64,000 nucleotides of DNA. Origin: a virus. Lineage: Duplodnaviria > Caudoviricetes. Below, piece by piece: positions 8,773 to 63,774 of this stretch. The position numbers and the translations under genes were made by a program. Location of the stretch: positions 27,530-91,529 of IMG/VR virus record IMGVR_UViG_2639763197_000004; one strand, written 5' to 3'. Within the stretch, counting starts at the first letter, position 1. The number at the start of each line of letters is the position of its first letter. The notes below the pieces were generated by a model. It made no database searches. It had not been told where the DNA came from and saw only the letters and a program-made list of their open reading frames with translations.

Positions 8773-8977
8773 ATGTCAAAGAGCCCGCTAAATCTGGGCT
8801 CTATGACTAATTTCGATTGTTTACCCGCTTGCATTGCTTTGGCACCGTTTTTTCTGGTTTGCAGGACCATCCTTGCCTGCAACGTCCCGGTTTGCCTGGC
8901 TTGTCACGAGTTGTCCTGTTTTATCCAGCTTCTTCCCACCAGATCCTCCCCAGTGCCAAAGCTGCCACTAACCCACA
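8773..8977. repeat. Candidate Mu-like left end with repeated transposase-binding motifs
   Basis: GTGCCAAA 8953-8960, its reverse complement TTTGGCAC 8838-8845, ATGTCAAA 8773-8780; terminal ...ACA at 8977. Confidence 0.6.
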
Positions 8978-10020
8978 GAAGGCTGCGCAACCGCACCGAT
9001 GCGCCTGTAAACGCGCTTGGTGATCTCCTGCTCCGAGTGCCCGAGAAGGAGGCTGGCGTCTGCGATATCTGTAATTTCGGATGCCGCCTTCGGTCGGATA
9101 TCCTTGAACTGAAACTGTTGGATCTTCTCCGCGTCATCAACTCGTCCCTCACTGGCGGCCAAAGAGCGAGCAGCTTCTCGGGCGTCGTCCCACCGGTTAC
9201 GCAGCATTTGTTGAGACACGCGCATCCCCGTTCTGCTGAGGATGAAGTGCTGCGAGTTGTGCTGGCTGTTCCTGGCAATGATGTCCTCAATGAGTAGGCC
9301 GAGGGTGTTCTTCACACCGCCTGCCTGCATTTGAATCCTGAGACGCTTGCCTGTTTTTCCCTGCTGCACGGTTAGGTAATCCCCCTCGATATCCCCCCGC
9401 CTCATTGCGATTACGTCTGCCGGGCGCTGGCCGGTCAGATAGGCCAAGTCCATCGCGTCCCTAAGCTCTTGTGGAGCCTTGCCATACACAGCGGTCCAAA
9501 CCATTTCATTGGCGTAGTAGTCGCGGACCTTCTCTTTATTCTTCCGGACACCGGCGCAAGGGTTTTCCCGATCCGTAAAGCCCCATTCTCGGGCCATGTT
9601 GTAGACGTGGGAGAGCAGGGCGATCTCTCTGTTTGCCCTAGTCTTCGCCGTTCTGGCGTCCCGGTACTGCGCAACCATGGAAGGGGTGATTGCATCGATG
9701 GGCGCCCCCTCGAACCCTTTGCGTAGGTGCTTGAGCTCTGCCTTGTTGTCTTTCTGCGTCCGCGGCGCTTTCTTCGGGATGATGTCCCGCTCGTACCTGT
9801 CAAAAATTCCCTTCATGATCTTCAGGTCTGCCGGCTTTGCCTTGGACTCAAGTTCGGCCCACTTGAGCCTGGCTTTGTCCAAATCTCCACCGAGAGACAA
9901 TTCCTTTCCATTTGCATCTCGGTAGTAATAGCCGACCCACGCTGTACCGTTCTTGCGTGGGCGCTTGCGCCGAACCATCCCGGGGGGCAAGTCCCTATTC
10001 TCTGTCTTGCGGGGGCGCAT
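8968..10020 (-). CDS. int: Tyrosine integrase
   Basis: LTGQRPAD, FKDIRPKAAS, LLGH...ITKRVY catalytic motifs. Confidence 0.95.
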   Translation of the reverse strand: MRPRKTENRDLPPGMVRRKRPRKNGTAWVGYYYRDANGKELSLGGDLDKARLKWAELESKAKPADLKIMKGIFDRYERDIIPKKAPRTQKDNKAELKHLRKGFEGAPIDAITPSMVAQYRDARTAKTRANREIALLSHVYNMAREWGFTDRENPCAGVRKNKEKVRDYYANEMVWTAVYGKAPQELRDAMDLAYLTGQRPADVIAMRRGDIEGDYLTVQQGKTGKRLRIQMQAGGVKNTLGLLIEDIIARNSQHNSQHFILSRTGMRVSQQMLRNRWDDAREAARSLAASEGRVDDAEKIQQFQFKDIRPKAASEITDIADASLLLGHSEQEITKRVYRRIGAVAQPSVG

Positions 10021-11191: not shown

Positions 11192-12256
11192 TTAGGCTGC
11201 TGGGTGTTGCGCTGTATCGCGGAAAACATCCATCTGCGCCGCGCCGTCGAGCCATGCCGCTGCGATCCGGTGTTCAGCCATTGCGGCGTATTCCGGGTTT
11301 AGTTCGCACAGGATCGATTTGCGACCTTCCTGCATGGCGACCACCGCCGTAGTGCCGGCACCGCCGAAAGGGTCAAGCACGACGCCGCCGAGTGGCGCGC
11401 CGGCCAGAATGCAGGGTCGGATCAGGTCCGGAGGGAAGGTCGCGAAGTGCGCACCCTTGAAACCTTGCGTCGGCACTGTCCACACACTGCGCTTGTTACG
11501 AGTATCCAATGAATAGGCGCTTTCCTCTCGATCTGGCCGGTGTGTTCCCAGTGATTGCCCAGGGATAGCTTGCTCTCGCTTTGAATCATCGCGCTTGAAA
11601 CTATCGCGCTTGCTACGAACGGCTTTCATTGGCCCGTTTGACTTTCCGGGCACTCGGTCGCTGCCCTGCTGTTGCTCGATATCCTGCGCCAGTCGCTTGA
11701 TCGAGCTGTGCGCTACAGGCTCCTTGATCGCATCCTGGTCATAGTAATAGCGCGGTGACTTGCTCAACAGGAACAGGTATTCATGCGACTTTGTGCACCG
11801 GTCTCTGGTGGATTCAGGCATGGGGTTCGGCTTGTGCCAAATGATGTCCTGGCGCAGGTACCAACCATCATCTTGAAGGGCGAAGGCGAGGCGCCAGGGG
11901 ATGCCCATGAGGTCTTTCGGCTTGATGCCAGTCGGATCTCGAGGGCGGACGCTCATTGTGCGAGCCTCCAGCTTTTCATCTACGCCGCGAGTGGTCCTGC
12001 CCCCGTTGGCGTAGCTATCGCCCATGTTCACCCAGATTGTTCCGTCATTGCGCAGCACCCGACGTACCTCGCGAAACACTTCAACGAGGCGCCCGACGAA
12101 TTCAGCAGGTGTCTCCTCCAAGCCGATCTGGTCGGCCATACCGTAGTCACGCAGCCCGTAGTAGGGCGGAGACGTGACGCAGGTGTTCACCGACTGGTCC
12201 TTCAGCGTCCGCATCGACTCAATGCAGTCGCCGATCAAAACGCGATGTTGTTTCAT
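11192..12256 (-). CDS. DNA amino-methyltransferase (N4-C/N6-A, beta class)
   Basis: TSPPY motif IV near N-terminus; HFATFP; VLDPFGGAGTT SAM-binding motif. Confidence 0.93.
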   Translation of the reverse strand: MKQHRVLIGDCIESMRTLKDQSVNTCVTSPPYYGLRDYGMADQIGLEETPAEFVGRLVEVFREVRRVLRNDGTIWVNMGDSYANGGRTTRGVDEKLEARTMSVRPRDPTGIKPKDLMGIPWRLAFALQDDGWYLRQDIIWHKPNPMPESTRDRCTKSHEYLFLLSKSPRYYYDQDAIKEPVAHSSIKRLAQDIEQQQGSDRVPGKSNGPMKAVRSKRDSFKRDDSKREQAIPGQSLGTHRPDREESAYSLDTRNKRSVWTVPTQGFKGAHFATFPPDLIRPCILAGAPLGGVVLDPFGGAGTTAVVAMQEGRKSILCELNPEYAAMAEHRIAAAWLDGAAQMDVFRDTAQHPAA

Positions 12257-12365
12257 GGGCGAGTTAGTCCTTGCCGCTATAGCGGCTGACTTTGAAGGGG
12301 GAGGGGTTACATCAAATCAGTTGTGCCAGTGCCAGCAGGCACCAGCAGTAGGCGGGGAGTTGGAT

Positions 12366-12680
12366 TCAGTACGGCACGCATTCTTTGCAGTTCGCCGTCC
12401 AACCCCTGGAGCCGCAGCCATTGCAGACGTGTTCATCCTTGGCTGGCTCTGCTGGCTTGAGCGTATCCAGGATGTCGCGCAGGTAGCCGGTTGCGATTGA
12501 TGGCTGCCTTCCTGCGCATTCAATCAACCGAGTGACAAACGTTATCGCTGAATCCGCTCGCTCATCCTCTGCGGTCAGCAGGGCTTGCAGGGCGTCACGC
12601 TCGGCGGTTACCCGGGTCAGTGCTTCGGCGTAAATGCGTCCTGCGTCTGGATGCCCAGTGCTAATCGTTATCTCACTCAT
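12366..12680 (-). CDS. Hypothetical protein with C-terminal CxxC..CxxC
   Basis: 104 aa ORF; SD GGAGG. Confidence 0.7.
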   Translation of the reverse strand: MSEITISTGHPDAGRIYAEALTRVTAERDALQALLTAEDERADSAITFVTRLIECAGRQPSIATGYLRDILDTLKPAEPAKDEHVCNGCGSRGWTANCKECVPY

Positions 12681-12704
12681 GACCCACCTCCAAATAATCA
12701 GAAA

Positions 12705-12830
12705 TCACAACCGACGGCCTCTGTAGGCAACCGGCATAAACACAAAATTGCCTCGTTTGTCTTTGATGACGGTCACCTTGTCACTGGTCAGACGCTTCAT
12801 CAGATCTTCGAAACTGTATTGGCGGACCAT
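12705..12830 (-). CDS. Small hypothetical protein (41 aa)
   Basis: Manual translation MVRQYSFEDLMKRLTSDKVTVIKDKRGNFVFMPVAYRGRRL. Confidence 0.5.
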   Translation of the reverse strand: MVRQYSFEDLMKRLTSDKVTVIKDKRGNFVFMPVAYRGRRL

Positions 12831-12875
12831 AGGAGTAGCCTTGCCGGGCCATGCCCTGGCGGTGGAGTTGGTGGG

Positions 12876-14036
12876 TTACTTCTTCAGGAATGTCTTGGTC
12901 AGCGCCGCATTGACGCTGTTGCCGCGCTTCAACACGACGCGAGCCAGTGCTGCCCTGTCTTTCTCGCTGTGGCTGGCCTGGCTGAGCAGGCCGAAGTAGC
13001 TGTTTGCGGTCTCGCGCAGATCCTCGGCGGGCGCCGCGGCTGTTCGCTTCAGCGCCTGGGCCAGGGATCGTTTGCGGGTGGTTCGCCGCCAGGGCTTGAT
13101 GACGTGACCAACGAAGTCGACGCCCCGATCCACGGGTTGCAGAATCGTCTTAGTGGGGTTCAGCTTAGCGCCGAGCCTTGGCAGGAACGCTTCGACCTCG
13201 GCCAACCACTGGTTGAGTTGCTGCGGGGACTCATGCAGAAACACGAAGTCATCGACGTACCGGATGTAGTGCTTGGCGCGCAGCGTGTGCTTGGCGAACT
13301 GGTCCAGGGCGTCGAGGTAGACGTTCGCGAAGAACTGCGACGACAGGTTGCCGATCGGCAGGCCGAGGTGAGCGGGCTGCGCAACCAGGCGCTTGTGCTG
13401 CGGCACCCGGTTGAACAGGTGCGCCGGGCTGCGGATCTCGTAATCCTCACGCGGGTCGTGCATGAGGATCTGCGTGGCTAGGGCCAGCCACCAGGGTTCG
13501 GTGATCTTGGCCTCCAGTTGCTTGCGCAGCACGGCCTTGTCGATGGCGACGAAGAAGTTTGCCAGGTCGCACTTCAGGTAGAAGATCGGTTTCGACCAGT
13601 TCTGCGAGGCGCTGCGGATCTTCGACTCAAGCCGTGTGGCGGCGTACAGCGTGCCGCGCCCTGGAATGCATGCGCAACTGTCCGCTATGAATCTGGCGTA
13701 GAAGCGCGGTGCCACATGGTTGTACATGAGGTGGTGGACGACGCGGTCCCGAAAGGCTGCTGCCCAGACTTCCCGGGCTTTCGGTCGGGTGACCACGAAA
13801 CAGATAGATCGGCCTGGCCGGTATGTGCCGGCAATCAGGTCGTCGTGCAGTTGGATCAGGTTCCGCTCCAGGTCGATCTCGAAAGCCAGCGCGCTGTCGC
13901 TGTTGCGCTTGGTGCGCCGGCAGTCGTAATAGGCCTGCACCAGATCCTGAAACGGGTAGGGGCCCAAAGTCGAATCTGCGGACGGGGCGGACACGGAGCT
14001 CGTTGTTCTTGTCGTTGTTGTTCTGATTGCCATCAT
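12876..14036 (-). CDS. DGR reverse transcriptase
   Basis: FRDRVVHH, CDLANFF, GLPIGNLSSQFFANVYL (DGR-type SQ), YIRYVDDF, GVDFVG. Start uncertain: ATG inside TR or a TTG just after it. Confidence 0.95.
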   Translation of the reverse strand: MMAIRTTTTRTTSSVSAPSADSTLGPYPFQDLVQAYYDCRRTKRNSDSALAFEIDLERNLIQLHDDLIAGTYRPGRSICFVVTRPKAREVWAAAFRDRVVHHLMYNHVAPRFYARFIADSCACIPGRGTLYAATRLESKIRSASQNWSKPIFYLKCDLANFFVAIDKAVLRKQLEAKITEPWWLALATQILMHDPREDYEIRSPAHLFNRVPQHKRLVAQPAHLGLPIGNLSSQFFANVYLDALDQFAKHTLRAKHYIRYVDDFVFLHESPQQLNQWLAEVEAFLPRLGAKLNPTKTILQPVDRGVDFVGHVIKPWRRTTRKRSLAQALKRTAAAPAEDLRETANSYFGLLSQASHSEKDRAALARVVLKRGNSVNAALTKTFLKK

Positions 14037-14076
14037 CGAAGTTCATGTTGAATGCGTTGTTGGCTGAGCGCTGCGA
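13972..14076 (-). repeat. DGR template repeat (TR)
   Basis: 105 nt, 33 adenines, 9 AAC + 1 AAT codons; differs from both VRs only at adenines. Confidence 0.96.
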
Positions 14077-14247
14077 CCTATCGTGCTATCTACGTCGCCA
14101 GGCCGAAGGCAAAGCCGATCAGCAAGGAAACTGCGCAAGACCTGCCCGGTCGCTTTAGACCGGCGGTATCTCTTGTGCGCATGGCGGTGACCCAAGGGTC
14201 AGCGGCACGACCAGATTCAATTCGCACAGACCAGAAAGCCGTAACCT

Positions 14248-14604
14248 TCAGGTAGCGGGCGCGGTTGGGGTGGAGCGTTTCCAGGCGTTTGCTTGCTTGC
14301 CTATTGAGGCCGTTACCTCAATTGCCTGGGCGTGTTGCGGAATGCTGATGAAGCGGTTGTCTTTGAAGAGTCGCATCAGGAACTCGACCACTTGCACCTT
14401 CTCGACCAGCAAGGTGAGGTGTGGCCGCTTGTCCTGGGTTGCGTTGGCCCGGGCAATTAGCATCAGCACTTCGATGCATTCGTCGATCACTCGCTTGCCG
14501 AGTGACTGCTTCAGGTCGCGGGGGATGTTCCGGGTCATCGTTGTGGCCATATGCAGCAGGCCCATCGAAGCCTTGTAGATCGCAAGTTCCGTATGCATTG
14601 CCAT
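14248..14604 (-). CDS. avd: DGR accessory variability determinant (Avd, four-helix bundle)
   Basis: 118 aa basic helical protein (ELAIYK...IPRDLKQSLG...IGKQANAWK) between the targets and TR/RT. Confidence 0.88.
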   Translation of the reverse strand: MAMHTELAIYKASMGLLHMATTMTRNIPRDLKQSLGKRVIDECIEVLMLIARANATQDKRPHLTLLVEKVQVVEFLMRLFKDNRFISIPQHAQAIEVTASIGKQANAWKRSTPTAPAT

Positions 14605-14626
14605 GTGGCTCGCTCTCCAAGAGCAA

Positions 14627-14644
14627 CCGGCCGCAAGCGGCCGG
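14627..14644. promoter_or_regulatory. GC hairpin/cruciform downstream of VR1 (DGR target-recognition element)
   Basis: CCGGCCG-CAAG-CGGCCGG, 14 nt after the target stop codon. Confidence 0.7.
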
Positions 14645-14658
14645 ATTAAATAAGCGAA

Positions 14659-15279
14659 TTAATCAATAAGCTCGCTGCGGACGGGGCGGACACGGAGCTC
14701 GTCGTACTTGCCGAGGCTGAGCTGAGTGCCACCACCGAAGGTCATGTAGAAAGCGTAGTAGGCTGAGCGCTGCGAACTCGACCAGTACCAGGTGTCGCGG
14801 AACGCTTCAGCACCGCCTTCCTGGAACACGGCGTGGAGGGTCTGCGCCGGGTCTTCTTCGCTGTACAGCAGGCCTACAGGCTCGCTGTTTGGGTTGTCGC
14901 CATTGCGCGAGCTCGCCCAGTTCTCTTCGGTGGTCGGCTTGAAGTGGCGGTACTGCAGCTCCTGCACATCGCGCGCCGGGATCGCCCAGTCGTTGTAACC
15001 GCCAATGCTCAGGGCCAGCACCTTCGCTGCAATCTCGCTGCCCGCCGCCGCCATGGCCTGGGTGTTGGCCAAGCTGTCGGTGAAGCTGTCGGCACCTTCG
15101 ATCTTGACGCCGTACTCGCCCCACTTGCCGACCAGTTCATGCGCCGCCCCGGAGCTGATGTGCAGGGAGCGCTTGCCGGTGGATGGGTCGCGGGTAATGC
15201 CGGTGACGAAGCCGCCGCCGTAGGCCTGGCCGATTGCCGGGATGGTTGCTGCTGGCGCTGCTTTCTCAACTGCGGACAT
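14659..15279 (-). CDS. DGR target protein 1 (DUF1566/Lcl-like C-type-lectin fold)
   Basis: DWAIPA...YWSSSQRS...RVRPVR motif; C-terminal VR1; likely start MSAVEK. Confidence 0.9.
   Translation of the reverse strand: MSAVEKAAPAATIPAIGQAYGGGFVTGITRDPSTGKRSLHISSGAAHELVGKWGEYGVKIEGADSFTDSLANTQAMAAAGSEIAAKVLALSIGGYNDWAIPARDVQELQYRHFKPTTEENWASSRNGDNPNSEPVGLLYSEEDPAQTLHAVFQEGGAEAFRDTWYWSSSQRSAYYAFYMTFGGGTQLSLGKYDELRVRPVRSELID
14674..14775 (-). repeat. DGR variable repeat VR1
   Basis: 102 nt aligned to TR; 17 mismatches, all at TR adenines. Confidence 0.95.
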
Positions 15280-15358
15280 GGTGCTTCCTCTTTTCGAAGG
15301 CAACAAAAAAGGCGCTGTGCGCCCTGGTGTGCCGGATCAAGAACGAATGGATGAAGGA

Positions 15359-15970
15359 TTAAATAAAGAATCTGCGGACGGGGCGGACACGGAGCTCGTC
15401 GAGCTTGACGTCGTAGCCCTGATGGCCATCAACGAAGTCCACGTAGAATGCGAAGTTGGCTGAGCGCTGCGAGGATGACCAGTAGTAGCAGTCTTGGGCG
15501 AATACCTCGGGGCAGTTCAGCCACCCCTGGTACAGCTCGGCAGCGGCCGGCAGGTAGAAGTCATGATGACCATCGGCCTGGTACTCGGCGCACGCATCGG
15601 CGGCGGGATACTTGCGCTCGTCGTCGTTACCAATCAGCACCTGGGTGTTGGTGTAGCCGTCGGTTTTGCTGAGCCCCTTTACCTCAACTCCACGGCCACC
15701 CCATTCAAGGCTGCCCACATCTTTTTCGGCGAAGATCAGGTAATGCGCTGGGACGTCACCGCGAGCTTGAACGAATCCGCCATTGATACCGCCCTGGCCT
15801 GGCCAAGTCTGGCCGATCTCAGGAGCGGCTGACGCCACTGCCGGCTGAACATTCGCGGCCGGTGGCAGAGCATGCACAAACAAGCTAGCCGCGAGCAGCT
15901 GAATCATACGTTCGGCAGTGCCTTTGATTTTGAGGCCGTCAGCCTCGATAGAAATTGTCTTGGCTTTCAT
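15359..15970 (-). CDS. DGR target protein 2 (DUF1566/Lcl-like C-type-lectin fold)
   Basis: DFYLPAAAEL...YYWSSSQRS...RVRPVRRF; C-terminal VR2. Confidence 0.9.
   Translation of the reverse strand: MKAKTISIEADGLKIKGTAERMIQLLAASLFVHALPPAANVQPAVASAAPEIGQTWPGQGGINGGFVQARGDVPAHYLIFAEKDVGSLEWGGRGVEVKGLSKTDGYTNTQVLIGNDDERKYPAADACAEYQADGHHDFYLPAAAELYQGWLNCPEVFAQDCYYWSSSQRSANFAFYVDFVDGHQGYDVKLDELRVRPVRRFFI
15368..15472 (-). repeat. DGR variable repeat VR2
   Basis: 105 nt aligned to TR; 15 mismatches, all at TR adenines. Confidence 0.95.
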
Positions 15971-16028
15971 CGGTGTTCCTCGGGTAAGCGCCGCCCTCCG
16001 CGTTACCGGATGCAGCGAGTAGGGTGGG

Positions 16029-16340
16029 TTATTCGTCGTGGTAGATGCGAAGGGCTTCGCGGTTGTAGGCGAGCTGCAGTTTTGCCGACACGTTTTCGGG
16101 TATCACGTATTCGTGTCGCGGCGGTGCGAGAAACTGAGCTGATCCCGCTTGGCCCAGGCCGTGCAGGTGGTGAATCATCAGCGTCATGGCCTCGCCCTGT
16201 TCCTTGATGCTGTGCCAGGCCATCAGGTCAGCCAAGGCCTGGCGGGTTCCGGACATGGTGTGGAGTCGCAATTCTTCCTCGCCGCGAGTCTTTCGCCTCG
16301 CCGCAGTCTTTGCCGATCGGTCTTTCTGCGCGGCAGCCAT
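16029..16340 (-). CDS. Hypothetical phage protein
   Basis: 103 aa ORF with SD GAGG. Confidence 0.7.
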   Translation of the reverse strand: MAAAQKDRSAKTAARRKTRGEEELRLHTMSGTRQALADLMAWHSIKEQGEAMTLMIHHLHGLGQAGSAQFLAPPRHEYVIPENVSAKLQLAYNREALRIYHDE

Positions 16341-16424
16341 GGCCTACCTCTTCTATTCCGCTGGCCGGCAGTGCGAGCCAGGTTTGACGTTTGCGTTGCT
16401 GGATGCGGGTTATGGGGCGCATGG

Positions 16425-17087
16425 TCAGGCTCCCAGGCGGTGGGCTTGCGCCCGTGCCTTGTCTGCGACCTCGTCGACCATGCGATTGAGTTCCAGGTTG
16501 AACTGGACCAGCTCCTTGTGCAGGTTTGCGATGTAGTCCTCGTCGCGGTAAATCGTCTCGATATAGAGCTGACACTCCTCATCCTGACGGGAATCGAACG
16601 AAATGAAGTCCCACCACTTGCGACCTGTAACGAACATGCATCCCTGAATCTGCGGGATGTGTTCTTCGGGCATGCCTTCGAGCCAGGTCCTGATGTGAAT
16701 TGCTTCGTTGAAAGGGCACTTTGATTCAGTACCGCCGTCATCGTTGATCAGGCCGTCGGGAGAGCAGCCAAGCCAGTCGTACTTGGGGTGGACGATGAAC
16801 TCGGAGGGGAGGACGATGTTGCCGGTCAGCATCTCGTAGGCGTCCTGGGCCTTTTGCTCTTCAGCGTGCCCCCATTTCAGGGAGGCGCTGCTGACGTTGT
16901 GTTTGGACTTCTTTGCCAGCCGCTCGAAGCACAGTTCGCGCATATAGGAGGTGCGCGCGCCCATCGGCTCGCGCTTCCCATGTTTGTCAGGCTTTCCCCA
17001 GGCCAACGCGTCTTTAAAGCGGCTGGCTGTCACGCGACCAGATCGGTCTGCATGCCACTTGTCCGTGCCCTGAAGCTCAGTTCTCAC
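16425..17087 (-). CDS. YqaJ/lambda-exonuclease family protein
   Basis: QGTDKWHADRSGRVTAS, GCSPDG, ESKCP, QIQG motifs. Confidence 0.92.
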   Translation of the reverse strand: MRTELQGTDKWHADRSGRVTASRFKDALAWGKPDKHGKREPMGARTSYMRELCFERLAKKSKHNVSSASLKWGHAEEQKAQDAYEMLTGNIVLPSEFIVHPKYDWLGCSPDGLINDDGGTESKCPFNEAIHIRTWLEGMPEEHIPQIQGCMFVTGRKWWDFISFDSRQDEECQLYIETIYRDEDYIANLHKELVQFNLELNRMVDEVADKARAQAHRLGA

Positions 17088-25432: not shown

Positions 25433-26164
25433 CTAAAGCTTCCGGGCATTCCAGACAAGCAGAACACGGGCCTGGATATGCACTTTGGCGAGCATATCCC
25501 CCTCGATCATGATTGCTGGGTACACGGGGTTATCTGAAATCATGCGCAGGGAGCCGCCTGTCAGGCGCTGAAGCCGCTTAATGAAAAGCTCGCCCTCCAG
25601 CGTGAAGACATAGATCGCATCGGTTCGGATCTCGGTTATGCCGCGATCTACCAGCAGGGCGTCGCCATTACGGAAAGTGCCCTCCATGCTGTCACCATCG
25701 CCATCGATGATGGCCAGGTTCTCTAGCTTGGAATACGACAAGCCCTGAGTCTTCAGCCAGTCGAGATGAACGGTAATATCCCTGATCACTTCGATGTGAT
25801 CGGGCGGCACTCTTCCCGGCCCCATTGAGCCGGCCACGTCCAGCTGAGGGATCGTGATGAAGCTGGAATCTTGCGATTTTCGGCGAGACTCAATCAGCAC
25901 GACATTGCTCTCCTTGCTTGCAGGCTGCGCTCCACCATCCACCCCCTTACGCATCGGCCCCTTTCCAGTAGCCAGCCACATCGGCATCACCTTCAGATAG
26001 TCGGCAGCGATCAAAAGATTCTGCCCCTCAATCGTCTTTGTTTTCCCTGAGATCCAGTCGTTTACAGACGGCGCGCGAATGCCACAAGCGCGAGCCAGGG
26101 CGGCCTGCGTAACTTTTGGCGGGCCGGCCATCACCAGTTTTAACCGTTCTTGAAGTGTCCTCAT
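25433..26164 (-). CDS. cI: CI-like repressor, HTH + S24 peptidase
   Basis: TQAALARACGIRAPSVNDW HTH; GDSM and FIKRL catalytic motifs; divergent from cro. Confidence 0.93.
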   Translation of the reverse strand: MRTLQERLKLVMAGPPKVTQAALARACGIRAPSVNDWISGKTKTIEGQNLLIAADYLKVMPMWLATGKGPMRKGVDGGAQPASKESNVVLIESRRKSQDSSFITIPQLDVAGSMGPGRVPPDHIEVIRDITVHLDWLKTQGLSYSKLENLAIIDGDGDSMEGTFRNGDALLVDRGITEIRTDAIYVFTLEGELFIKRLQRLTGGSLRMISDNPVYPAIMIEGDMLAKVHIQARVLLVWNARKL

Positions 26165-27225: not shown

Positions 27226-28050
27226 ATGAGCAATGTCATCCCACTTCGCAATACCGGGGGATTTACCCGGATGGACAACGACCTGTACGAAGCCTTGATA
27301 GGTGCAGACCTGTCAGGCCGTGAGCTGCGTGTCGCCCTGGCGATCCACAGGCTCACCAGCGGCTACAACAAGGAAGCGGTGAAGGTAGCGGCCCTCTACA
27401 TCGCCAAGATGATGTACAGCGACGAAGACAAGGCTGTGTCTGAGCGCGCAAACGTATCTCGGGCCATCAACTCCCTGATTCGCCAGCGGGTTTTGTTTCG
27501 TAATGGTGGAAGCCGTGATCCGATCACTTTCCTACCCGTCAACGAATGGAAAATTGACCATAAATCCATTGTGTTGAAATCTACACACTGTGTAGAAAAG
27601 ACACCTGCCACTGTGTCGAAAATTACACACATAAAAGACATAAATACAAATCTAACTGCTAACGCAGTTGTCGCCGCTGACGCTTCGACCGGCGAGGATT
27701 TGGAATCTGAACCGGAACAGCAGGGCACCCCAGAACCTGATCAGCCTCCTGCAGCCAAGGTTGATCGAATCCCATACGGACGCATCGCTGAGATCTACAA
27801 CACCGTATGCGGCGAGAAGCTGCCGAAGTGCCTGAAGCTCTCGAACAAACGCAAGAACCTGATCAAGGGCTGCTGGAACCTGGAGATCAACGGCGTTCAT
27901 CCCTTCCGCAAGGGTGAGTTCTGGACTGCGTACTTCACCGATTGCCTGACCAACAAGCACTGGATCGGCGAGAACGACCGTGGCTGGACTGCTGATATTG
28001 AGTTTCTGACCCGCCAGGACAAGGTCCTGAAAGTGTTGGAGGCCCTATGA
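27226..28050 (+). CDS. Lambda O-like replication initiator
   Basis: GFTRMDNDLYEALIGADLSGRELRV; C-terminal GENDRGWTADIEFL. Confidence 0.9.
   Translation: MSNVIPLRNTGGFTRMDNDLYEALIGADLSGRELRVALAIHRLTSGYNKEAVKVAALYIAKMMYSDEDKAVSERANVSRAINSLIRQRVLFRNGGSRDPITFLPVNEWKIDHKSIVLKSTHCVEKTPATVSKITHIKDINTNLTANAVVAADASTGEDLESEPEQQGTPEPDQPPAAKVDRIPYGRIAEIYNTVCGEKLPKCLKLSNKRKNLIKGCWNLEINGVHPFRKGEFWTAYFTDCLTNKHWIGENDRGWTADIEFLTRQDKVLKVLEAL
27570..27655. repeat. Replication origin iterons and AT-rich tract inside O
   Basis: TGTGTTGAAATCTACACA, TGTGTAGAAAAGACAC, TGTGTCGAAAATTACACA followed by an A-rich run. Confidence 0.7.
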
Positions 28051-33828: not shown

Positions 33829-34071
33829 ATGAGCGACCAATCAGGCGAACACGTCCACTACAGGGATGATGGCCGAGGCCGGCGTTAGGTGATCATCGAC
33901 GGCCAGCCCGCTACACACGTGATCTGGTGCGACACAAAGGCCGGTATCGCAGTTGTTGCCGACCAGCCGATCAAGTCCACCGATGGCGAGACAGTCGACT
34001 TTCACCCGGTATGGGGTGAGATCAAGGTGATCCCAATTGAACAGGCCTCTTCCCCCGGCGAACCTGCTTGA
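33829..34071 (+). pseudogene. Phage ORF interrupted by an in-frame TAG
   Basis: SD GGAG + ATG 33829, 19 codons, TAG 33886-33888, same frame continues 60 aa. Confidence 0.45.
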
Positions 34072-34660
34072 GCTGTCCGATCTCTCCGACTTCGGTATCC
34101 GCCTGACGCCTGCGCCCGAAGTGTGGGAGTGGCTCCAGGCCGAGATCCTTGCTGACACCGGCAGCATTCACAATGAAGACCATGCTCATCTACTGGATGC
34201 AGACATCCGGATCATGTGGGCCTCGTCTAGCTTCGAGAAGCAGGGTCGTACAATTCTAGGCCAGGCCGAGCAGGTAGCGTTCCGCGCTGGTGGCTGGCAG
34301 AAGGCCCGGATGGAACAACAGATGCGTGATTGGTTCGGCGATGTGCCGGCCTTCATCATCACCTTGGCTGCCGACTACTGCGCCCAGTGCAGCGACCTTG
34401 AGTTCTGTGCGCTCCTGGAGCACGAGCTTTACCACATTGCTCATGCCATGGATAAGTACGGTCAGCCAGCCTTCACCAAAGAAGGGGCGCCGAAGCTCGA
34501 GATGCGTGGCCACGATGTCGAGGAGTTCGTCGGTGTCGTCCGCCGCTACGGTGCAAGCCCTGACGTTCAAGCGTTGGTGGATGCTGCAAACAGTCCTGCT
34601 GAGGTGGGGAAATTGAACATTGCGAGGGCCTGCGGAACCTGTCTGCTGAGATCGGCCTGA
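34037..34660 (+). CDS. Putative phage metallopeptidase
   Basis: LLEHELYH and HDVEEF motifs. Confidence 0.8.
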   Translation: MNRPLPPANLLELSDLSDFGIRLTPAPEVWEWLQAEILADTGSIHNEDHAHLLDADIRIMWASSSFEKQGRTILGQAEQVAFRAGGWQKARMEQQMRDWFGDVPAFIITLAADYCAQCSDLEFCALLEHELYHIAHAMDKYGQPAFTKEGAPKLEMRGHDVEEFVGVVRRYGASPDVQALVDAANSPAEVGKLNIARACGTCLLRSA

Positions 34661-60409: not shown

Positions 60410-60892
60410 TCATCTATTGGAGTATGGGGAATTGATCTTCATTCCTCCGCGCATTTTTTTTACACCCGGCTCCATATCCGCCGGGCACGCGCCCTGAAAG
60501 CTGCCACTAATCACTGTGTGTTGTCTTTCAATTTTTCCATTTAGCTCAAACGACGTATCGGCCGTCAGTACATAGGATTTCGCAAGGTCGCCTTTGAAAG
60601 ATCCGGTCATAATCGCTTCAGAGCAGCGTGATTTGAAATTGTAGCTATCGACGTTACCGCTTTTAGATTCGATTTTGCACTCCTGTTCGAAGTCACTCCA
60701 CAGGTCGTCATCTATAAGCCTGTCTTTCTCATGGTCGACGCATACTTCCCAAGAAAACGGCGAGGTGGACGGAGTAACCTTCCACAAACCTGAAGCGCGT
60801 TGCAGACGCAGCGATGGTTCAGCGGCTGACGCCAAAAATGTTACTGAGAAAGCAATTGCGGTCGACAGCAATATGGCGAAGTACTTCATCAT
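60410..60892 (-). CDS. Secreted protein, DUF3617-like
   Basis: Signal peptide, GLWKV, Cys pattern, GACPADMEPG. Confidence 0.7.
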   Translation of the reverse strand: MMKYFAILLSTAIAFSVTFLASAAEPSLRLQRASGLWKVTPSTSPFSWEVCVDHEKDRLIDDDLWSDFEQECKIESKSGNVDSYNFKSRCSEAIMTGSFKGDLAKSYVLTADTSFELNGKIERQHTVISGSFQGACPADMEPGVKKMRGGMKINSPYSNR

Positions 60893-62081: not shown

Positions 62082-62507
62082 ATGAGCTTTACCATTTTAG
62101 GTCCGATATCCGAAGGCGGCACGAAGCTGCCATTTTGCTCTTTCCGCGTGCCGGCCGGATTCCCGTCGCCGGCGGCCGACCACATCGAGCAGCACATCTC
62201 ATTGGATGAGGTTCTAAATATCAGGGCTCCCCACGTTTACTTGATCGCTATCACCGGCGAGAGCATGCAGGGGGCGGGCATCTTTGAAGGTGACCTCGCA
62301 GTCGTGGATCGCTCGATTGAGCCAGTCCACGGGCATATCGTTGTGGCTTTGCTTAACAACGACCCTATCTGTAAGCGCCTGTGCAAGCGAGGGAAAGAGG
62401 TCATTCTGCTATCGGAAAACCCGAAGTATCCGGCTCGCTACATCCTGGAAGGCGATGAGCTCTCAATCTGGGGGGTGATAACCAACACCGTGCGCAGCCA
62501 TGTCTAA
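62082..62507 (+). CDS. umuD: DNA polymerase V subunit UmuD/RulA
   Basis: VPAGFPSPAAD, GESM, CKRL. Confidence 0.93.
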   Translation: MSFTILGPISEGGTKLPFCSFRVPAGFPSPAADHIEQHISLDEVLNIRAPHVYLIAITGESMQGAGIFEGDLAVVDRSIEPVHGHIVVALLNNDPICKRLCKRGKEVILLSENPKYPARYILEGDELSIWGVITNTVRSHV

Positions 62508-63774
62508 GCAGCCTGTGTTCGCGCTGATCGACTGCAACAGCTTCTATGCGAGCTGCGAGCGCGTCTTCCGTCCTGACCTGGCCAAGGTGCCCATCGTAGT
62601 TCTCAGCAATAACGATGGCTGTGTTATCGCCCGCAGCTACGACGCGAAGCCTTTTATCAAAATGGGCGAGCCCTATTTCCAGATCAAGCACAAGCTCAAG
62701 CAGCACGGTATTGTGCCGTTTTCTTCAAATTACGCCCTGTATGGGGATATGAGCGAGCGGGTAATGACCGTGATCGAGAGCATGGTGCCTGCGGTCGAGA
62801 TCTACAGTATCGATGAAGCATTTGCTGACTTGACTGGCATCGATGGTCTGGATGCCCTCGGGCGAAATATTCGGGCCCAGGTGCTGCGCGTTACCGGCAT
62901 TCCAGTTGGCGTAGGCATCGCAACTACGAAAACGCTGGCCAAGCTTGCCAACCACACGGCGAAGCGGCTGCAGTCCCAGACCGGTGGAGTGGTGAACATC
63001 ACCGATCCGGCCAAGCGCGCCTGGGTGCTGCGCAATACCGACGTGGCCGAGGTGTGGGGTGTCGGTCGAAAAATGAAACTCCACCTCGACGCACTTGGCA
63101 TCAAGACGGCCATGGACCTGGCCAAGGCTGACCCGTGGGCGCTGCGCAAGAAGTTCAGCATCGTGATTGAGAAGACTGCCCGGGAGTTGGCCGGCACGTC
63201 TTGCCTGGAGCTGGACGAGCCCGACCCGCCGAAGCAGGAGATTTGTTGCAGTCGGATGTTCGGTAAGCGCCTGACCGAGTTGCCGCCGATCAAGGAGGCG
63301 CTGGCCACCTACATGATGCGGGCCTCTGAAAAGCTCCGGGCTCAGGGTTCGCTATGCAAGAAGGTCCGTGTCTGCATCCGTACCGGCATGTTCAACCCGG
63401 AAGAGGCCAAGTATGCGAACGGGGTTGTAGTCGATCTGCCTTATCCAACCGACGACGTGCGCCTACTCACGAAGGCTGCGGTTGATGCGGTGGACCATAT
63501 CTACCGGCCAGGCTTTAAATACAACAAGGCCGAGGTGATGCTGCTCAACCTTTGCCGGCCAGGCGAGTACACCGACGATCTATTCACCGTGTCGCAGCCT
63601 GCGCAGGCTACCAGGGTAATGAGGGTGCTGGACCAGATCAATGGGCGGTGGGGAAAGGGAACGCTGCGGTCTGCCAGTGTGCCGATGAACCCCGACTGGG
63701 GAATGCGTCGGGAAATGATGAGCCAGAGTTTTACGACGAGGCTTGATCAGCTGTGGTCGGTGGCTTGTAAGTAG
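62500..63774 (+). CDS. umuC: DNA polymerase V subunit UmuC/RulB
   Basis: DCNSFYASCE, VLSNNDGC, YSIDE, W.MRREMMS. Confidence 0.95.
   Translation: MSKQPVFALIDCNSFYASCERVFRPDLAKVPIVVLSNNDGCVIARSYDAKPFIKMGEPYFQIKHKLKQHGIVPFSSNYALYGDMSERVMTVIESMVPAVEIYSIDEAFADLTGIDGLDALGRNIRAQVLRVTGIPVGVGIATTKTLAKLANHTAKRLQSQTGGVVNITDPAKRAWVLRNTDVAEVWGVGRKMKLHLDALGIKTAMDLAKADPWALRKKFSIVIEKTARELAGTSCLELDEPDPPKQEICCSRMFGKRLTELPPIKEALATYMMRASEKLRAQGSLCKKVRVCIRTGMFNPEEAKYANGVVVDLPYPTDDVRLLTKAAVDAVDHIYRPGFKYNKAEVMLLNLCRPGEYTDDLFTVSQPAQATRVMRVLDQINGRWGKGTLRSASVPMNPDWGMRREMMSQSFTTRLDQLWSVACK

Follow-up and report, generated by a model that had tools for sequence, protein, structure and literature searches.

Diversity-generating retroelements (DGRs) are best known for retargeting the tail fibres of phages and proteins of the cell surface. 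Here we describe a DGR on the minus strand of a 64,000-nucleotide stretch of the IMG/VR virus record IMGVR_UViG_2639763197_000004 (positions 27,530 to 91,529 of that record; hereafter the window), which diversifies two small proteins encoded in the early region of a prophage. Read from position 15970 down to 12876, the element consists of target B, target A, a GC hairpin, avd, a structured RNA (RT-15), the template repeat (TR) and the gene for the reverse transcriptase (RT). An initial annotation, made from the sequence alone, had described a complete two-target DGR at this place, and all of its parts were recovered on the minus strand where that annotation had put them (Table 1). The element has every feature by which a DGR is recognized at the sequence level, and it is almost certainly an intact, recently active DGR belonging to a lineage that is common in temperate phages of Pseudomonas and Burkholderiales.

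An ungapped three-way alignment of the TR with the two variable repeats (VR1 and VR2) gives a repeat length of 101 nt; the 105-nt TR with 33 adenines that had been proposed before corresponds to the TR extended to 13972. In a scripted count all 31 of the 31 mismatches in VR1 and VR2 are located at TR adenines, and the chance that 31 random mismatches would all hit the 32 adenines among 101 positions is (32/101)^31, or ~1e-15. The earlier count of 15 mismatches for VR2, all at TR adenines, was reproduced. For VR1, 16 of the 17 reported mismatches hold, whereas the 17th (A>C, position 102) lies beyond the end of the homology, as three non-A mismatches follow it directly. The replacement bases differ between the repeats (T7 G5 C4 in VR1; T7 G6 C2 in VR2), in agreement with the proposal that both were mutagenised independently. 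Both VRs end 13-16 nt ahead of the stop codon of their target gene. The TR encodes SQRSANNAFNMNFDDGNQNNNDKNNELRVRPVR when read in the VR frame, and the first ~61 nt of the RT frame lie within it. The window contains only three copies of the invariant 3' 29-mer of the repeat, where 100 shuffles gave an expectation of 0, and a 26-mer of the repeat was likewise detected only three times when the full 91.5-kb provirus record was scanned. As these matches are limited to the three known copies, there is no VR within the tail genes, in either the window (29-mer) or the full record (26-mer), as the initial annotation had stated.

The RT matches RVT_1 (59.7 bits) and phrog_1423 (E 1.8e-116); its true start is uncertain because the ATG of the frame (14036) falls inside the TR. 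Among the NCBIfam models, no DGR-RT model was passed by the RT, and the group II, retron and Drt models remained far under their cut-offs. Avd matches PF22296 (bAvd) with 48.4 bits against a cut-off of 40 and phrog_3206, annotated as 'Avd protein of DGR', at E 2e-30; its score with NF033474 (51 bits) is under the cut-off of 80. These family matches, the YVDD motif and the open target frames of 203 and 206 aa support the view that the RT, Avd and both targets are intact.

Table 1. Features of the DGR in the window, in the order in which they are read on the minus strand.
Feature	Position	Strand	Length	Description
Target B	15359..15970	-	203 aa	~35-aa N-terminal module, Pro/Ala linker and CLec/DUF1566-like domain
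VR2	15372..15472	-	101 nt	15 mismatches to the TR over 101 or 105 nt; homology continues to 15368
Hairpin after VR2	15309..15325	-		Short GC stem followed by a T-run; weak, terminator-like; z -1.4
Target A	14659..15279	-	206 aa	Near-bare CLec/DUF1566-like domain with VR1 at its end
VR1	14675..14775	-	101 nt	16 mismatches to the TR
Hairpin after VR1	14627..14644	-		7-bp GC stem, loop CTTG, 30 nt past VR1; z -2.2
avd	14248..14604	-	118 aa	Accessory four-helix-bundle protein
RT-15 structured RNA	14074..14264	-		Rfam RF03018, 182.4 bits, E 1.4e-45, full model
TR	13976..14076	-	101 nt	32 A; 105 nt and 33 A if extended to 13972
RT	12876..14036	-	386 aa	Longest ATG frame; YVDD present; start codon putative

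The 190-nt spacer between avd and the TR is occupied by the RT-15 RNA, the end of which lies 3 nt inside the TR. The same arrangement, with RT-15 adjoining the TR, was found in 15 out of 15 related loci tested (L004, L005, L006, L007, L036, L056, L084, L111, L114-L116, L119-L121 and L123), which take in the phages Haboob, LPPA56 and Magia as well as Paraburkholderia, Rugamonas and Methylophilus genomes. Judged by this arrangement, the orphan Rfam motif RT-15 is a structured RNA integral to this DGR lineage, which is a new assignment. The literature on RT motifs contains the speculation that other RT motifs serve other DGRs.

To place the element among its relatives, we compared 85 loci: the best 80 of the 166 IMG/VR relatives identified by an RT scan (RT 88-99% identical), four cultured phages and the window. 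Two VRs were detected in 75 of these loci, three in 5, one in 2 and none in 3; the fixed-register scan found no VR in L005 (Magia), L049, where the locus ends close upstream of the TR, and L058. A GC hairpin is located 30-33 nt past the avd-proximal VR in 75 of 82 relatives, with compensatory variants in the stem, and a corresponding hairpin follows the TR in only 3 of the 85 loci; the hairpin after VR1 is likely a target-recognition hairpin or cruciform. After the distal VR, a hairpin of at least 6 bp is found in just 21 of 80 relatives.

Comparison of each VR with its own TR (167 VRs in the 85 loci) gives differences at 2285 of 5081 TR-adenine sites (45%) and at 75 of 11786 non-adenine sites (0.64%), the latter figure being capped by the detection rule of at most 4 non-A mismatches. 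Most VRs are unique, both avd-proximal (74/82) and distal (71/80). The relation between VR and flank divergence was assessed in 175 locus pairs with comparable geometry, 12 of which have a flank divergence below 1%. The VRs are identical in 9 of these 12 pairs, and one further pair has no difference in the flanks and 2 in the VRs. In contrast, the two proviruses L024 and L034, which come from one genome record, show 2 differences over 2851 flanking nt versus 20 and 16 in the VRs, and L007 and the window show 8 over 2845 flanking nt versus 19 and 13 in the VRs.

In four public sequencing runs from four studies, a 7-kb region around the element has two point differences, and the VRs are exactly as in the window. 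Three of the four runs contain in addition one or two VR1-type contigs with 19 differences from the window, all at TR-adenine sites. Read depth is doubled over 12267-15397 (X6, X12 and X11), so that a second copy of the cassette accounts for the three VR1-type contigs of X6 and X12 more readily than a mixed population would. These runs were read as contigs; some of the identical pairs and runs may resample one strain, and one run may be the source of the window. Taken as sequence comparisons, the data fit a turnover of the VRs that is far faster than that of the flanks and occurs in bursts, with stable VRs among identical lysogens. This pattern would be expected if the RT is encoded in a repressed early operon.

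The TR contains 18 variable codons, allowing for ~1e17 possible peptides, and only one of these codons can mutate to a stop. A survey of codon sites in 107 unique VRs of one TR family revealed that the adenines of AAC/AAT and GAT/GAC codons are substituted in 36-88% of the repeats, with the exception of the second base of the first AAC codon (6%), and that a silent third position (GCA) is substituted in 21%. The adenines of the two CAG (Q) codons, the AAG (K) codon and the GAG (E) codon are substituted in 0-2%. The near-invariance of the K, Q and E adenines beside saturated sites indicates that scaffold residues are purified after mutagenesis. Target frames are open and intact in nearly all of the 165 targets.

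Both targets carry a lectin-like domain, the last ~33 codons of which correspond to VR2 in target B. Target A starts at the ATG at 15279, with the Shine-Dalgarno-like sequence AGAGGAAG upstream, and the protein encoded in the window contains no cysteines. Matches to Lcl_C/DUF1566 (PF07603) reach 29.8 bits for target B and 28.7 bits for target A, both under the Pfam cut-off of 34.9, and both proteins match phrog_4245 at E ~1e-30 (1.3e-30 for target B). Their homologues in phage Medea1 are annotated as DUF1566. No tail families were found among the Pfam and PHROG matches of either target, which agrees with the earlier description of both as small, CLec/DUF1566-like and devoid of a tail-fibre domain. 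NCBIfam named neither the targets nor the adjoining unknown genes.

Alignments of the related loci revealed that a type A and a type B protein are paired in every element, a new observation. The pairing spans the Pseudomonas, Burkholderia and other Burkholderiales lineages. Type A proteins measure 206 or 158 aa across the lineage and comprise little beyond the lectin-like domain. Type B proteins carry an N-terminal module that is modelled by AlphaFold2 (AF2) as a beta-hairpin and a helix (predicted local distance difference test score, pLDDT, 70-78). One sub-lineage, as well as Haboob and LPPA56, has the gene order A-B instead of B-A. A profile search of 1.84 billion representatives identified no relatives of the N-terminal module outside the family: the 12 matches are 11 members or fragments of the family itself and one low-complexity repeat protein, with no fusions. 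A search of the ESM Atlas with the type B N-terminus returned nothing usable.

The initial annotation had named structure prediction as a check. The best match of the type A model, itself of low confidence, is the C-terminal domain of Legionella Lcl (8q4e; Z 7.2, 122 of 131 residues aligned), followed by a Bacteroides fimbrial protein (4eps, Z 6.2); many C-type lectin domains, TvpA, Mtd and TaqVP were matched at Z 2.3-3.1. The type B model was set aside as too poor for a structure search (pLDDT 60, and below 30 in the VR). Foldseek retrieved nothing from the PDB at E <=0.001, the best match again being 8q4e at E 0.047, and a family profile run against the PDB matched the same Lcl domain at E 7.6e-4.

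PHROG annotation of 64 open reading frames (ORFs) identifies the host element as a lambda-like siphovirus prophage of Pseudomonas. On the minus strand, int (8968-10020) is followed by xis, a DNA methyltransferase gene, the DGR, the genes for a YqaJ exonuclease and RecT, and finally a CI-type repressor gene (25433-26164). The plus strand encodes cII, O, DnaB, NinB, NinG, terminase, portal, capsid, tape measure, J, tail fibre, endolysin and Rz (to 59318). As int, xis, exonuclease, RecT and cI are all co-oriented with the cassette, the DGR forms part of the leftward early operon and lies ~10 kb downstream of the repressor, and the map thus confirms the pL-direction placement proposed earlier. A promoter scan found no sigma-70-like promoter in 12000-17000, which is weak evidence.

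A 14-nt direct repeat, AAAGCTGCCACTAA, is present at 8958-8971, just past the int stop codon, and at 60497-60510, 1.2 kb past Rz. By our estimate ~0.05 matches of this kind are expected by chance, and the repeat is a candidate for the att core of a prophage of 51.5 kb. If this assignment is correct, circularization would leave ~6-7 kb between the cassette and the genes for tail fibre and lysis, with int still in between and the strands still opposite. The distance of ~40 kb from the tail genes given in the initial annotation applies to the integrated map and would shrink to this figure in the circular genome.

Directly upstream of the cassette lies a gene for a 103-aa protein (phrog_5439; 16029-16340, minus strand), as is also the case in 43 of 86 related loci, and this gene may travel with the cassette. 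A YqaJ-like exonuclease gene is found upstream in 32 of the 86 loci, and the flanks are otherwise mosaic. Elsewhere in the window, a umuD/umuC-like pair (phrog_811 and phrog_1268; 62082-63774, plus strand) lies rightward of the lysis genes and probably does not belong to the prophage, and a 207-aa ORF (34037-34660, plus strand) that matches phrog_513, annotated as transposase (E 1.4e-96), is found just ahead of the late operon's putative small terminase gene.

Relatives of the RT with 74-100% identity are found in ~35 Pseudomonas species (one genome per species), and a single Janthinobacterium record contains one at 88%; those at 64-70% come from Rugamonas, Paraburkholderia, Burkholderia, Methylophilus and Gallionella records. 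At least one VR with adenine-only differences was detected in 30 of 43 genome-contig loci with a crude seed-and-extend finder, for which the 13 misses are no evidence of absence. The early-operon layout of the window is shared by the cultured phages Cruim01, Haboob, LPPA56 and Burkholderia phage Magia, and by IMG/VR loci.

Several variants of the element were observed. Three-target elements, in which a short type A-like gene is added ~2 kb upstream, occur in L039, L075 and L079 (records G018, G034 and G037) and in L078, and a tail sheath is encoded in 3 of the 4 three-target IMG/VR records of at least 40 kb. Cruim01 contains a third VR ~7.7 kb upstream. In a group of loci that includes L036, L043, L046 and L056, the RT is 90-92% identical to that of the window, whereas Avd is only ~50% and the targets are 33-48% identical, the TR differs and the target order is inverted; such similarity of the RT beside a divergent remainder suggests that the RT and the other parts of the cassette have been reassorted by recombination. 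Phage Medea1 (L087, 5482-7301) still has, at the equivalent early-operon position, an A and a B gene whose 3' ends are VR-like, with an HNH endonuclease gene in place of avd, TR and RT. Aurca01 looked similar to Medea1 at first comparison and is a candidate only.

By analogy with the DGR of Bordetella phage BPP-1, we infer that a transcript containing RT-15 and the TR would be copied by an RT-Avd complex, with random bases inserted opposite template adenines. The resulting cDNA would replace the last ~100 nt of the two adjacent target genes, guided by the GC-rich 3' end that both have in common and, in the case of the avd-proximal gene, also by the conserved GC hairpin. The 18 varying codons are predicted to map to the ligand-binding face of the C-type-lectin-like (DUF1566/Lcl_C) domain. 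Diversification would take place in lytic growth, when RT and TR are transcribed, with selection at the next infection, and the cassette, within a cI-repressed leftward early operon, would move as a module between phages with unrelated virions.

With regard to the function of the targets, we favour the reading that they are soluble binders for host or competitor molecules, made in the infected or induced cell, and are not parts of the virion; we put the probability of this reading at roughly 0.45. The early-operon site, the movement of the module and the lack of a lipobox and, by eye, of a signal peptide would make soluble intracellular binders the most likely role. The proposal of the initial annotation, hypervariable intracellular binders made early in infection, is reasonable in this light and gains indirect support. 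In every locus examined, the cassette lies on the strand opposite to the late operon and inside the early leftward operon. Among 41 related records of at least 40 kb, a J-type tip alone is encoded in 22, a sheath alone in 4 and both in 1, with neither in the other 14, and record G001, with the closest cassette (99.7% identical to that of the window), has a different set of portal, protease, baseplate and tailspike and no J. The presence of near-identical cassettes amid unrelated virion modules argues against a docked virion role. None of the 165 targets contains a lipobox, no signal peptide or membrane anchor was seen when the N-termini were read by eye, and the targets of the window show no protein similarity to the products of its late genes. 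In Medea1, the A/B pair is retained despite the loss of RT, Avd and TR. More specific forms of the reading are less probable. An anti-defence role, suggested by gene position, is one candidate, though an unlikely one, and the host-takeover adaptors of the initial annotation are likewise speculative. It is equally unlikely that the targets are cytoplasmic early proteins which a temperate phage evolves in real time, by means of its own retroelement, to bind and neutralise variable proteins of host immunity or of competitor phages; they would then form an adaptive counter-defence repertoire of the phage, portable whatever the type of virion.

Several points weigh against soluble intracellular binders. 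The argument from gene position is one of analogy with lambda. The AF2 models are of low confidence (pLDDT 69 for type A, 60 for type B), and run X11, labelled metatranscriptomic, was discarded as evidence of transcription, its depth following the 1x/2x pattern of DNA copies. In 17 of the 165 targets, an Ala-rich 19-aa window exceeds a crude hydrophobicity threshold, and virion proteins likewise lack signal peptides. The best structural matches of type A are an adhesin domain (Lcl) and a fimbrial protein. The phrog_4245 domain forms the C-terminus of six longer proteins (466-591 aa) with fn3/Ig domains and, in one protein, stands behind N-terminal tail-fibre families. In the 'Bacuni' phages of Bacteroides uniformis, the DUF1566 targets of the DGR hold most of the differences between phages of different host range. 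Characterized members of this fold, among them the surface lipoprotein LdtA (Wu et al. 2018), bind extracellular ligands.

Many of these points bear on an alternative in which the targets are made early and act in host recognition, either on the virion or as soluble adsorption adaptors, such that the DGR would switch tropism as in BPP-1. The fusions of the homologous domain to tail-fibre and Ig/fn3 N-termini, the link of the Bacuni targets to host range and the adhesin and fimbrial fold matches all favour it, as does the classification of most phage DGR targets as tail proteins by Roux et al. (2021). The type B N-terminal module and Pro/Ala linker would be a docking piece, and the circular genome would bring the cassette to ~6-7 kb from the tail-fibre genes if the candidate att is correct. 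This explanation nevertheless has to accommodate an early, opposite-strand location at every locus, near-identical cassettes in phages with J-type, sheath-type and other tails, a type A protein without any extension, an N-terminal module that has no relatives outside the family among the 1.84 billion representatives, and targets that do not resemble the late proteins of the window; we regard it as unlikely, though by no means negligible. A benefit to the lysogen, with hypervariable intracellular sensors or decoys against other phages, expressed from the prophage through a promoter of their own or by read-through, or with factors freed by spontaneous lysis that bind surfaces or neighbours, could account for the occurrence of two DGR prophages in single genomes (L024/L034; the 2x depth and extra VRs in X6 and X12) and for the retention of the target pair without RT in Medea1; there is also precedent for cellular DGR targets that carry no export signal (Roux et al. 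2021). It appears rather improbable, given the absence of a promoter-like site from the 5-kb region scanned, a position ~10 kb down an operon that would be silenced by lambda-type repressors, the lack of a lipobox in all targets and of a signal peptide by eye, and the stability of the VRs among identical lysogens, which suggests that the RT is silent in the prophage state. Finally, the mosaic flanks and the loss of RT, Avd and TR in some phages could be taken to indicate a selfish or decaying module that hitch-hikes in a hotspot for accessory genes and yields variable proteins without a selected ligand. Open frames in nearly all 165 targets, invariant K, Q and E codon adenines next to saturated neighbours, and the maintenance of the A and B pair across Pseudomonas, Burkholderia and other Burkholderiales make this very improbable.

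With the DGR of BPP-1 (mtd-avd-TR-brt), the element shares a target with a 3' VR, Avd, an AAC-rich TR, an RT and adenine-specific mutagenesis, as well as the GC-rich 3' end, a downstream GC hairpin with a 4-nt loop, a variable domain with C-type-lectin fold and a temperate phage as host. The target in BPP-1 is the tail-fibre tip Mtd, the gene for which lies with the tail genes, whereas here there are two small non-tail proteins encoded in the early leftward operon. The match of the type A model to the Mtd fold is weak (Z 2.9). RT-15 is located 5' of the TR, on the opposite side from the RNA element of BPP-1, and, together with a TR that runs into the RT frame, this indicates an RNA geometry that differs from the BPP-1 model. 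As judged from its sequence, the element is not a BPP-1-type tail-fibre DGR.

The DGR of Legionella pneumophila, with target LdtA, likewise has its VR in a DUF1566/Lcl_C-type lectin fold. In contrast to the targets of the window lineage, which have no lipobox, LdtA is a surface lipoprotein with an export signal; the Legionella element is cellular, whereas the present one is located in a phage early operon and its targets match the Pfam family under the gathering score. The Bacuni DGR also has two DUF1566-type targets with a VR at the 3' end (35 codons), and these match the fimbrial protein BACOVA_04982 (4eps) as well, though hosts and phages are unrelated to those described here; the differences among their VRs follow host range, and the targets were interpreted as adhesins by the authors.

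A relative described before is the Burkholderia cenocepacia phage Magia, which belongs to the same lineage (RT 66% and Avd 47% identical, RT-15 present) and has its DGR in the same place, in the leftward operon between RecT/exonuclease and xis/int, with short 'lectin fold' targets and regions that resemble an initiation-of-mutagenic-homing (IMH) sequence. Its annotated targets are ~120 aa, one of them ~6 kb upstream, and the failure of the fixed-register scan to detect a VR indicates that the TR/VR geometry differs from that of the window. The announcement of this myophage (Microbiol Resour Announc 2021) reported a potential DGR with short targets, with a role given only as to 'adapt or alter host range'.

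Short targets of this kind are therefore no novelty in themselves, and in this respect the initial annotation implied more than can be sustained: the Magia layout had already been annotated and announced, and short DUF1566-only proteins are a published class, making up about half of the 'category d' targets (CLec2, DUF1566) of Wu et al. (2018). Non-structural viral targets are mentioned only in passing by Roux et al. (2021), where viral targets are mostly classed as tail proteins. Our literature search, which did not extend to the supplementary catalogues of Wu et al. (2018) and Roux et al. (2021) that may list the lineage, turned up no publication dealing with the Pseudomonas members, nor one in which a phage DGR diversifies proteins with an intracellular or anti-defence role. 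The terms DGR, retron and reverse transcriptase are absent from the Cruim01 paper, as is DUF1566 from the Medea1 paper.

The element in the window is one more member of a large and essentially undescribed phage lineage. What is new is the pairing of type A and type B targets, the RT-15 RNA abutting the TR, the occurrence of near-identical cassettes amid unrelated tails, and targets that lack a lipobox and, by eye, an N-terminal signal peptide. The lineage is abundant, and its target genes, located and oriented alongside those for early recombination and integration, are passed between phages whose tails are unrelated. If the targets prove to be adsorption factors, this would be an ordinary DGR in an unusual map position. 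If they act inside the cell, it would be the first case in a phage of programmed hypervariation aimed at an intracellular ligand, and the existence of cultured members in tractable hosts makes the question of what the targets bind directly testable.

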